Part shown: in pieces, positions 6,557 through 9,194 of the stretch
Layout: each line of letters begins with the position of its first letter
Numbering within the stretch: position 1 is the first letter of the stretch
Assembly (NCBI GenBank): GCA_030668875.1
Contig: DAOVER010000057.1
Span: 1-18,553, forward strand
DNA length: 18,553 nucleotides
Source: Candidatus Heimdallarchaeota archaeon
GTDB lineage: Archaea; Asgardarchaeota; Heimdallarchaeia; Heimdallarchaeales; Heimdallarchaeaceae
Direction of reading: 5' to 3'
Notes under the pieces: generated by a model
What the model was told of the DNA's origin: nothing
Databases searched by the model: none
Seen by the model: only the letters and a program-made list of their open reading frames with translations
Translations under genes and position numbers: made by a program

Positions 6557-6576
6557 TCCCGATCGGTCCACCATTT
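6557..6576 (+). repeat. att-like direct repeat, left copy (tRNA-Ala 3' end)
   Basis: TCCCGATCGGTCCACCATTT; 16/20 identical to 9175-9194, last 11 nt identical. Confidence 0.7.
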
Positions 6577-6645
6577 ACTTTTTTATGACTTTATATCCTG
6601 ATTTATATTATATTTAACATTGAGAAAAACGTAGCATGATAACAA

Positions 6646-9156
6646 ATGATTAATGATGACAAATTAACCCGTTTAACACCGAAAAATCAACCAGTTAGTT
6701 TAGCTTCATGTTCAAAGATTATCTCGCAACAAAATCAGATGGCTAGTATCTTAACAGATAAATTAGTCAAACAGCTAGGTTTGTCATCTAAAAACTCACT
6801 TGATGACTTTGTAAAAAACTTGAAAAAACTAGCTGAAAGCAAGAATTTTGGTAAGAATAAACTAAAAAACCTCATTCCAAAAAGGCAAGTCAAAGAAGTT
6901 TTTGACCGAATATTGACACTTAGAAAACAGGATGGTACAACAAAAGAGCTATTCATAACTTTTTTACTCATAATTTTAGGAGATATTGAAAAGAAAACGA
7001 AGAACATTACAATAAAATATTTAGCAGATTATGTTGACAAATCTAACATTGTAGCGGGTTTTGGTAAAACACATGGAAGGAGACAAGGTTTTGATGTTCT
7101 CACTATAAAGATGAACAAAGAGAAAGACATGGTTTCAAGTATCAGTTTTGGAGAACTAAAATACAGATATAATTTGGAAACAATACTAAGCCGAAATCAA
7201 CTGCCATTCTCTAAAAGTAGAAAAAAGAAAATAAAAGAGTTGAAAGGTAAGAACAAGTTAGGCCAATATCTAATCTTTAACAGCTCATTAGAATGCCTAC
7301 CAGACACAGGCTTTTCTTTCAATTCCACTTACAACAGAGGGAACGATCTAATAATAAAAATGAAGAGTTGGGATAAACACATTCATGAAATAATTACAAG
7401 CGATAACACATTCACGTTAAATAGTAAAATACTTACAAGAAAACTTCCAAATGGGAAACCATTCTATCAAGCACTTAAGGAGGCTATCCTTGAACAAGCA
7501 TACTTAGAAGCATTGTGTGAAAATGGATTAATCTTTGATGAAGAAGGAAAAATCAAGACTGAACACATATTTAGTATTGCAAAAAAAGGTTTCAAAATCA
7601 GGATAACTACAGAAGATTTTGAAATATGCAAATCATACCAAAAGGATGAAACTGGGAGATATATCACATTTAATCTTGTTAGTAGAATTAATGACAATTT
7701 TCCTGATATTCTAAAAGAAAACAAAGACAGATATAAAGTATATATAACTGAAGGAGCTGTACATACGTTTAGCATTTGTAAAGAAAGTTACATAATTGTA
7801 ACATCAGAAAATTATTACAAACAGAATAAACAGAAGTTAATTGCAGAGATTAAAACTCGCTTCATTAATGACTTTAGGGATTTTAAGCTTCTTTCACACT
7901 GGGAAAATGTAATTGAAGATGAAGCCAAAATTAGAAGCGATCTATTATTTGTTACAAGTTCTCCAAACGAAACACTGAATAAAAATGGTTGGAGCATCTG
8001 GGAAAATCTGAAAAGAGGAAAAGAAGAAAATTTACTTTTTGGATCAGATAGAGTTTATCAATATGCTCTAAAACCACCGATAGGTAATAGATTAGCTTTG
8101 AAGAGCAAATGGTTTTTAGAATTAAATGAAGCATTAGAAGGTAAAAAAACATATTCAAGAAAACAGGTGAAAAAGCACAAATTAATCAAACTAAAAAAGA
8201 AAAAAGAGGAAGACGTTTGTAAAAGCTATAGAGAATTGCGTAAAAGATGGCACAAATCAGGCTATCCAAACATAAGTAAGTATGGTAAAATAAATCCCGA
8301 AAACCTCTTTGGATTAGGTATTAGCAACAAAGCAAGTATTGCTACTGAATGGTCGAAGCTTAAAATAGGGGAGGAGTATATTGCAGAAAATCGGGTTGTA
8401 AATATTAAATCCATATTTGTAGAACCTGATAGTTTCTATAATAGTTATTTAGATTTCCAAGTTGTGCTTATTCAAAAAGATGGTTCAAATCAGAAAATAA
8501 TTTTAGAAAAACAAGGTTTGAAGCCTCTAATTATTAATAATGTTACAATACCAAAACAACATACTAGTCTATTTCCTTATCCAACAGAAAAAGTGAGAAA
8601 TGGTAAACCAAATACTTATTTTAGAAGAGGTTTTATGGACAAAAATGTCTTAGGAAAAACCTATCAAGTCCTAAAGAGAAGTGAATTCCTTTATGATAGT
8701 GATAGACAGATTTTAGAAGTGCTTTATGAAATATGGGATTCTAATCTATCAGAAAAGGGGAAAGTAGAAGTTTTATTCAATTCAATTGAAGCTACCATTC
8801 TCCTGATAGAAACATTGAAAATCATGGAAAATCTAACTAAACAACTTTTTAAACGTTTGAAATCAAATAAGAGACTTCTAAGACATCTACAAATTCCTTC
8901 AAAATTTCCGTTCCAAATTGCTTCAAAGAGATCTTTCAAAAGACATTATGCGTTTGGTTTGATAGCAGAAAGCACATCTAATCACAAGAAATATGTTGTT
9001 TATGAACTTCTTGGTGATGATTTACTTAATTTCCTCATATTAATAAGAACAAGGTTAGATATGATGGTAAAATATTACAAAGAGTATAGATGGACAAAAT
9101 CAGTTAAGAAAATAACAAGGGAGATAAAACAATTATTAAGAAAATATGATTTATAA
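6646..9156 (+). CDS. 836-aa Lys-rich hypothetical protein with an N-terminal PD-(D/E)xK-like nuclease motif
   Basis: Long uninterrupted ORF with an AT-rich TATA-like element at about 6602-6610. GFD150-x19-E170-L-K172 (ISFGELK) is preceded by an E101-containing helix. Confidence 0.85.
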   Translation: MINDDKLTRLTPKNQPVSLASCSKIISQQNQMASILTDKLVKQLGLSSKNSLDDFVKNLKKLAESKNFGKNKLKNLIPKRQVKEVFDRILTLRKQDGTTKELFITFLLIILGDIEKKTKNITIKYLADYVDKSNIVAGFGKTHGRRQGFDVLTIKMNKEKDMVSSISFGELKYRYNLETILSRNQLPFSKSRKKKIKELKGKNKLGQYLIFNSSLECLPDTGFSFNSTYNRGNDLIIKMKSWDKHIHEIITSDNTFTLNSKILTRKLPNGKPFYQALKEAILEQAYLEALCENGLIFDEEGKIKTEHIFSIAKKGFKIRITTEDFEICKSYQKDETGRYITFNLVSRINDNFPDILKENKDRYKVYITEGAVHTFSICKESYIIVTSENYYKQNKQKLIAEIKTRFINDFRDFKLLSHWENVIEDEAKIRSDLLFVTSSPNETLNKNGWSIWENLKRGKEENLLFGSDRVYQYALKPPIGNRLALKSKWFLELNEALEGKKTYSRKQVKKHKLIKLKKKKEEDVCKSYRELRKRWHKSGYPNISKYGKINPENLFGLGISNKASIATEWSKLKIGEEYIAENRVVNIKSIFVEPDSFYNSYLDFQVVLIQKDGSNQKIILEKQGLKPLIINNVTIPKQHTSLFPYPTEKVRNGKPNTYFRRGFMDKNVLGKTYQVLKRSEFLYDSDRQILEVLYEIWDSNLSEKGKVEVLFNSIEATILLIETLKIMENLTKQLFKRLKSNKRLLRHLQIPSKFPFQIASKRSFKRHYAFGLIAESTSNHKKYVVYELLGDDLLNFLILIRTRLDMMVKYYKEYRWTKSVKKITREIKQLLRKYDL

Positions 9157-9174
9157 ATAAAAATGGATATCATT

Positions 9175-9194
9175 TCCTGTTTAGTCCACCATTT
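9175..9194 (+). repeat. att-like direct repeat, right copy (tRNA 3' remnant)
   Basis: TCCTGTTTAGTCCACCATTT, 18 bp after the ORF stop, followed by a T tract as the tRNA copy is. Confidence 0.7.

Follow-up and report, generated by a model that had tools for sequence, protein, structure and literature searches.

Introduction

Cis-mobilizable elements (CIMEs) and decayed tRNA-gene islands occupy sites at the 3' ends of tRNA genes: the tRNA gene stays intact, a partial copy of its end forms the far border of the inserted DNA, and what lies between is accessory cargo with no recombination module. Here we describe an islet of this layout in an 18,553-nt stretch of DNA (hereafter the window) from a Candidatus Heimdallarchaeota archaeon, where a single open reading frame (ORF) of 836 amino acids, P0001, lies between the end of a tRNA-Ala(UGC) gene and a partial copy of that end. 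The window is the entire contig DAOVER010000057.1 of a 3.23-Mb metagenome-assembled genome (MAG; GCA_030668875.1, here G000) that is 92% complete. Judged by its sequence, the islet would belong with the CIMEs, since it has att sites on both sides and no recombination module. It differs from CIMEs and decayed islands in holding one gene in 2.6 kb, in its Heimdall-group host, in its 11-nt core and in that no helper with a cognate integrase was found in the genome. The integrase-less, att-flanked layout is already known; the cargo is an uncharacterised nuclease-like family.

Among archaeal elements, the islet falls in the same size class as the smallest integrated element described in Thaumarchaeota, NitUzo-E2, which holds four genes, including an integrase gene, in 2.6 kb (PMC6563490). 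tRNA-directed integration has also been published for viruses of Heimdallarchaeum, for aloposons and for CRISPR-Cas modules, so that the islet shares its tRNA targeting with HeimV1 and the aloposons of the same archaeal group (PMC8813620). In contrast to the islet, however, NitUzo-E2, HeimV1 and the aloposons all encode their own integrase. Few mobile elements have been characterised in Asgard archaea; at this locus the insertion is clean and delimited in full, its borders are exact and the empty site is known, its age can be estimated, and there is evidence of selection.

An insertion at the 3' end of tRNA-Ala(UGC)

The original prediction, made from the letters of the window, was that the end of the tRNA-Ala gene recurs after the 836-aa ORF, and the repeat proved to be as described. 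The left 20-mer (TCCCGATCGGTCCACCATTT, 6557-6576), the tRNA-Ala(UGC) last exon, is matched by a right 20-mer (TCCTGTTTAGTCCACCATTT, 9175-9194) that begins 18 bp past the stop codon, with 16 of 20 positions identical in an ungapped comparison. Within these lies an exact 11-mer, GTCCACCATTT, whose right copy starts 28 bp past the ORF and which occurs in only these two places when both strands of the 3.23-Mb genome are searched. Chance had been judged an unlikely source of the repeat; indeed, none of 20,000 shuffles of the 137-bp spacer reached either 16/20 matches or an 11-nt run. A repeat search lengthens the pair to 45 nt, of which 71% are identical (6543-6587 and 9161-9205, spacing 2,618). 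When two 1-nt gaps are allowed, the similarity runs 12-14 nt beyond the core, through a T-tract to ..TGA (6577-6588 and 9195-9208), which brings the gapped repeat to approximately 25-33 nt. To the left (6543-6565) the similarity is 12/23, about chance level.

The concern that the repeat might be an assembly artefact was laid to rest by four Logan assemblies of separate runs, each of which carries the islet at 100% identity. As the window DNA is present in marine-sediment metagenomes that all come from one study, these four runs, among them SRR26080958, SRR26080962 and SRR26080963, may themselves be the source samples; they rule out a one-off assembly error and do not represent independent biology.

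Comparison with related genomes revealed the unoccupied site. We took the tRNA-Ala locus from 13 congeners, mapped the window proteins onto it and could read the interval between the tRNA gene and the following family-2 glycosyltransferase (GT2) gene in 11 of them. In all 11 the tRNA-Ala gene is directly followed by GT2, with approximately 60-105 bp between the two and without the islet, so that the empty site that had been anticipated exists and the locus shows no vertical conservation of the ORF. Because these genomes include distant congeners with approximately 60-70% protein identity, the empty state is ancestral, and the difference reflects an insertion here rather than deletions in the others. 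In-silico removal of 6577-9194 restores a collinear alignment with the four closest relatives (G016, G010, G021 and G002), and the right repeat copy continues straight into the spacer behind the tRNA gene in those four. The arrangement of the arms reads as attL = B-O-P' and attR = P-O-B', consistent with the attL/attR signature that had been proposed for the locus.

The inserted DNA has a GC content within the lowest 0.8% of equal-sized windows of the genome, and holds a single ORF in ~2.6 kb, as had been noted at the outset. Closed on itself, it would form a predicted circle of 2,618 bp, with the ORF uninterrupted and the predicted attP within the other 107 bp, which are intergenic. The features of the locus are listed in Table 1; the A/T-rich stretch of the leader could contain the promoter of the ORF.

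Table 1. Features of the islet and its borders (positions in the window)
Feature	Position	Strand	Basis or remark
tRNA-Ala(UGC) gene with two introns	6445..6573	+	Hand reading against intron-less orthologues
attL-side repeat: tRNA exon 3 plus 15 nt downstream; exact core 6566-6576	6557..6588	+	Sequence, repeat search, shuffles
Inserted DNA, 2,607 bp (or 2,618-bp unit including one core copy), 29.7% GC	6577..9183	+	Empty sites, in-silico excision
Element-derived leader: T-tract now terminating the tRNA, then A/T-rich stretch	6577..6645	+	Diverges from the relatives' native spacer after ..TTTTTTATGA
P0001, 836-aa ORF, only gene of the islet	6646..9156	+	Orphan family restricted to the genus
Probable PD-(D/E)xK nuclease domain, ~residues 95-245	6928..7380	+	Homologue alignments, models
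attR-side repeat: exact core 9184-9194; native tRNA downstream spacer from the core rightwards	9175..9208	+	Sequence, alignment to relatives
Native spacer and GT2 gene (9294-10259)	9195..10259	+	Gene directly follows the tRNA in relatives

Recombinases and mobile forms

The islet had been described as integrase-less, and its single ORF indeed has no recombinase domain in Pfam. The search for integrases elsewhere in the genome, which had been suggested as a check, found no tyrosine recombinase (PF00589) in the 92%-complete G000 assembly; the SSV-type model (Sulfolobus spindle-shaped virus, PF16795) gave only a sub-threshold match, outside the islet. At least one tyrosine recombinase is present, as an accessory gene, in 12 of the 23 congeners. 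No integrase-bearing element using the same att site was found in G000, nor do the tyrosine recombinases of the congeners, whose genomes are incomplete, lie at tRNA-Ala(UGC).

G000 does contain five small serine-recombinase ORFs (196-249 aa; loci L071-L075 on contigs C15, C48, C18, C29 and C87), none of which is beside a tRNA gene. At two of these loci the ORF is of 196 aa and is placed identically, suggestive of a repeated element; among three neighbouring ORFs checked by Pfam, none is a TnpB-like partner.

The predicted attP junction has no match in viral contigs. Its lone match in metagenomes lies within coding DNA of 62% GC and was rejected as a chance occurrence. A large joint from 6525 to 9546 in assembled contigs might have been taken for excision of the islet, but it stems from a diverged congener that occurs alongside this strain and whose site is empty. 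Two other kinds of element were considered and set aside: a transposon with terminal inverted repeats or a casposon, as no inverted repeat links the sequence from 6577 with that ending at 9183, and an SSV-type integration, as the ORF is unbroken and both copies of the core fall outside it.

The islet gene and its family

P0001 has no match in Pfam, PADLOC, PHROGs or NCBIfam, and none in a sequence profile search of the PDB. A full HMMER scan of 1.84 billion representatives recovered three relatives, a word-indexed protein search returned the query alone, and viral and metagenome contigs yielded no related loci. Among genomes the family is almost wholly limited to this genus, where it is present in 8 of the 23 congeners; there is also a marginal match in another family of the order, and G000 itself carries a 1,022-aa paralogue on contig C37. 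The family genes lie in varied contexts beside housekeeping genes, and several persist only as C-terminal fragments.

Four residues, E101, D150, E170 and K172, are invariant in nine homologues, which also share an R-G-N motif at 231-233. In an AlphaFold model of residues 35-440 (pLDDT 73) these four residues are predicted to fall on the helix and on strands 2 and 3 of an alpha-beta-beta-beta-alpha-beta unit, a modelled layout that corresponds to the PD-(D/E)xK arrangement. Structural comparisons by Foldseek (PDB and the AlphaFold database) and by wider fold searches, run with the whole model and with residues 35-440, gave no significant match (E values of at least 0.04). The weak matches listed include HamA, with the best scores (TM score 0.47, Z score 4.1), NERD, Mrr, DUF4143, DUF234, PDDEXK_7, NucS, NucC and several type II restriction enzymes, so that the nearest shapes to the nuclease domain are PD-(D/E)xK families, none of them significant; some of the fold lists were dominated by helical hairpins. 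A feature search with residues 560-836 gave no usable match. On the strength of these alignments and models, P0001 is probably a nuclease with approximately 600 further residues of unfamiliar fold.

The protein thus resembles the PD-(D/E)xK nucleases of defence systems (HamA of Hachiman, NERD, Mrr-type and type II enzymes) in its E..D..ExK motif on an alpha-beta-beta-beta-alpha-beta core, and these were the nearest shapes in four fold and feature searches. In contrast to them, it has no significant match to any, carries the ~600 extra residues and is encoded without a partner helicase or methyltransferase gene. As an orphan nuclease-like family of one genus, it is a candidate defence or selfish gene.

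The family takes a variety of forms. The 1,022-aa paralogue (G000:C37:14138-17206; L045 6139-9207) adjoins a gene for a TdeIII-type type II restriction endonuclease (L045 4824-5675, minus strand), which is a weak hint of a defence neighbourhood. In G016 this paralogue has been cut to a C-terminal remnant by a deletion of ~2.3 kb, and C-terminal-only fragments are also found in G004, G008 and G014. Versions of ~1,800 aa, in which an N-terminal extension of ~900-990 aa precedes the P0001-like module, occur in G006 (contig C83; L046 5793-11303) and G009 (contig C127; L047 3988-9342). Neither flanking repeats of at least 12 nt nor a tRNA gene detectable by ARAGORN was found at the loci on C37 and in G006, G007, G009 and G022, or at a shorter homologue in G008, the locus on contig C13 of G008 having been left out of this comparison.

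Age, selection and distribution

A second MAG, GCA_018238585.1 (locus L052), carries the right-hand 796 bp of the islet with the same GT2 flank, and its attR, although decayed (GTCCTCAATTT), is located at the same place. The window and L052 are 86% identical in the element and 88% in the flank. Synonymous divergence (dS) in the element is 0.40 over 250 shared codons, compared with 0.41-0.66 in three flanking genes; as the two are alike, the islet has been resident for roughly the time since these lineages parted. The ratio of non-synonymous to synonymous divergence (dN/dS) is 0.24 for the islet ORF versus 0.09-0.12 for the flanking genes. These sequence comparisons indicate that the islet is old and retained and that its gene is under purifying selection. 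Homology with L052 ends at codon ~586, upstream of which the DNA is unrelated; this represents either a real 5' truncation or a contig join.

The distribution of the islet does not follow the flank. For the five lineages that share ~88-90% identity, the tree of the 3-kb right flank is nearly star-shaped. A clade uniting the two carriers is rejected by the approximately unbiased (AU) test (p = 0.007), and the identity between these carriers is not raised beside the islet. Three histories would account for this, among which 3 kb of one flank cannot decide: polymorphism of the islet during a rapid radiation, its precise loss on more than one occasion, or two separate gains. Repeated precise loss or a double gain, if true, would imply real site-specific mobility.

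Origin of the islet

We propose, with a probability of roughly 0.6, that the islet is the footprint of a site-specific integration whose recombinase has been lost or acted in trans, leaving behind a defence-like or selfish nuclease gene. The incoming DNA would have been a circular element of ~2.6 kb whose one gene was nuclease-like and whose attP imitated the final ~11-25 nt of tRNA-Ala(UGC) and its trailer. It would have entered the 3' end of the tRNA gene by conservative site-specific recombination, with the crossover within GTCCACCATTT, in an ancestor within a group of close Heimdallarchaeota species. The tRNA would have remained intact with a T-tract supplied by the element (attL), and the native trailer would have been displaced behind a partial copy of the tRNA end (attR). 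The recombinase, which the islet does not encode, would either have acted in trans or have been lost. What remains would be a fixed and old islet, with its gene for an 836-aa PD-(D/E)xK-type protein, most likely a defence or selfish nuclease, retained by purifying selection.

Several points weigh against this proposal. No recombinase was found that could have made the insertion, and the tyrosine integrase genes of the congeners have no ARAGORN-detectable tRNA within ~10 kb, a search that intron-bearing tRNAs would escape. No circular or excised form was seen in contigs, the only kind of data covered, and the Logan contigs show no joint between 6576 and 9195. An identical core of 11 nt is short, the left arm of attR matches the tRNA weakly (5/9, or 12/23 over the longer stretch), and the T-rich extension past the core may be no more than two terminators. 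One gene with a 107-bp spacer is also tidier than would be expected from random decay of a larger element. Finally, the assignment of a nuclease fold to the cargo rests on a motif and on non-significant structure matches.

A homing-like origin, the main alternative, is unlikely, though still credible. Here P0001 would cut the unoccupied tRNA-Ala/GT2 junction, and repair from the occupied allele would copy the gene in as part of a selfish cassette, whose copy of the tRNA end keeps the tRNA functional. The layout recalls the mobile endonuclease ORFs of fungal mitochondria and free-standing homing endonuclease genes, in which a lone nuclease gene follows a conserved gene with a duplicated end and no recombinase is present. 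In contrast to these, P0001 is an 836-aa PD-(D/E)xK-like protein rather than a LAGLIDADG or GIY-YIG enzyme, the layout was not seen again among its homologues, and its cleavage activity is only predicted. That the islet consists of exactly one nuclease-like gene and a tRNA-end copy, without a recombinase within it or a tyrosine recombinase found in the genome, would suit such a cassette. So would the conflict between its distribution and the flank tree, as if it had invaded or been lost repeatedly, and the L052 copy, from which the nuclease half is missing, as in a homing cycle that has reached its decay phase. However, the other loci of the family that were checked lack flanking repeats and tRNA association, the equal dS of element and flank and the absence of raised identity beside the islet give no sign of recent spread, and homing alone does not create a short exact core with diverged arms.

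A broader and more tentative version of this idea, which we consider doubtful, is that the islet is a self-propagating single-gene element: its PD-(D/E)xK protein would recognise and cut the unoccupied tRNA-Ala trailer and the element would be copied in by repair with its own patch of tRNA end and terminator, as an archaeal case of a broader, undescribed class of recombinase-free elements that are driven by a nuclease and target gene ends. If lone nucleases in minimal recombinase-free islets are self-mobile, the locus would provide a compact archaeal test case.

It is improbable that a stray circular DNA inserted in Campbell fashion through microhomology, with the 11 nt being the microhomology used and the tRNA position a coincidence. 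The strictly identical block of just 11 nt and the absence of a recombinase from the islet agree with such an event, but tRNA 3' ends make up ~0.03% of the genome by our estimate, so that an accidental landing exactly on one is unlikely. Moreover, similarity reaches beyond the core in both directions, the tRNA and its terminator are precisely preserved, and two lineages, not sisters according to the flank tree, carry the islet or its remnant at the same site.

We regard it as very improbable that P0001 represents a novel recombinase or transposase in its own right, which would make the islet an autonomous single-gene integrative element. As the only gene, a large multi-domain protein of 836 aa that fills the islet, P0001 would be the natural candidate, and PD-(D/E)xK proteins can act in transposition, as TnsA does. 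However, beyond the nuclease triad it shows no conserved pattern of Arg/His/Tyr or Ser such as recombinases have, its conserved C-terminal columns are hydrophobic, family members elsewhere are not flanked by att sites, and there are no terminal inverted repeats. That the repeat is a chance or assembly artefact and the ORF an ordinary resident gene is refuted by the empty sites and the separate assemblies, and nothing in its favour was left after testing.

Introns of tRNA-Ala(UGC)

The target gene comprises three exons (6445-6481, 6504-6525 and 6557-6573), separated by introns of 22 nt (6482-6503, position 37/38) and 31 nt (6526-6556, position 59/60, in the T-loop). Although neither ARAGORN nor Rfam calls this two-intron gene, it is real: the spliced 76-mer equals the intron-less tRNA-Ala(UGC) of congener G016 and folds into a cloverleaf with G3:U70. 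It is also the sole UGC isoacceptor found in the genome, where ARAGORN reports only CGC and GGC isoacceptors elsewhere.

The T-loop intron has a homologue (22/31 nt) in the islet-free congener G001 and is missing from other islet-free congeners; its presence is thus independent of the islet. As the recombination core lies entirely 3' of this intron, in the last exon and the trailer, integration needed no crossing of the intron. For these two reasons the locus says nothing about whether introns block att sites, a question on which it had been thought to bear. What it does indicate is that a multi-intron tRNA gene can still act as an integration target through its last exon.

Both introns are polymorphic in presence and absence within the genus. 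The 37/38 intron is common to the window and G002 only, and the 59/60 intron to the window and the distant G001 only, whereas the genes of G016, G010 and G021 have neither. This pattern suggests frequent loss or transfer of tRNA-Ala(UGC) introns.

Neighbouring genes

Upstream of the tRNA gene, the region at 6014-6320 comprises approximately 300 nt of non-coding DNA with raised GC and with blocks conserved across congeners (CCATTGGAAA, GGGGAGGGGCT and two copies of TTTTGTCGG). It has no Rfam match even at E<=1, and an 82-aa ORF on its minus strand looks spurious; the region may encode an unannotated structured RNA. The gene next to it (5693-6013, minus strand) encodes a 106-aa protein without a Pfam match that is unusually constrained, with 91-98% identity across the genus compared with 55-90% for its neighbours.

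Further downstream, the window encodes a cysteinyl-tRNA synthetase (CysRS; 12391-13824) whose best matches after those in other Heimdallarchaeota are from Clostridia and Bacillaceae, at 45-49% identity, and it is possibly a CysRS of bacterial type. In G021 the LPG_synthase_TM gene that follows GT2 has shrunk to ~66 matching codons (contig C316; L035 7319-7505), apparently through a deletion in that species.

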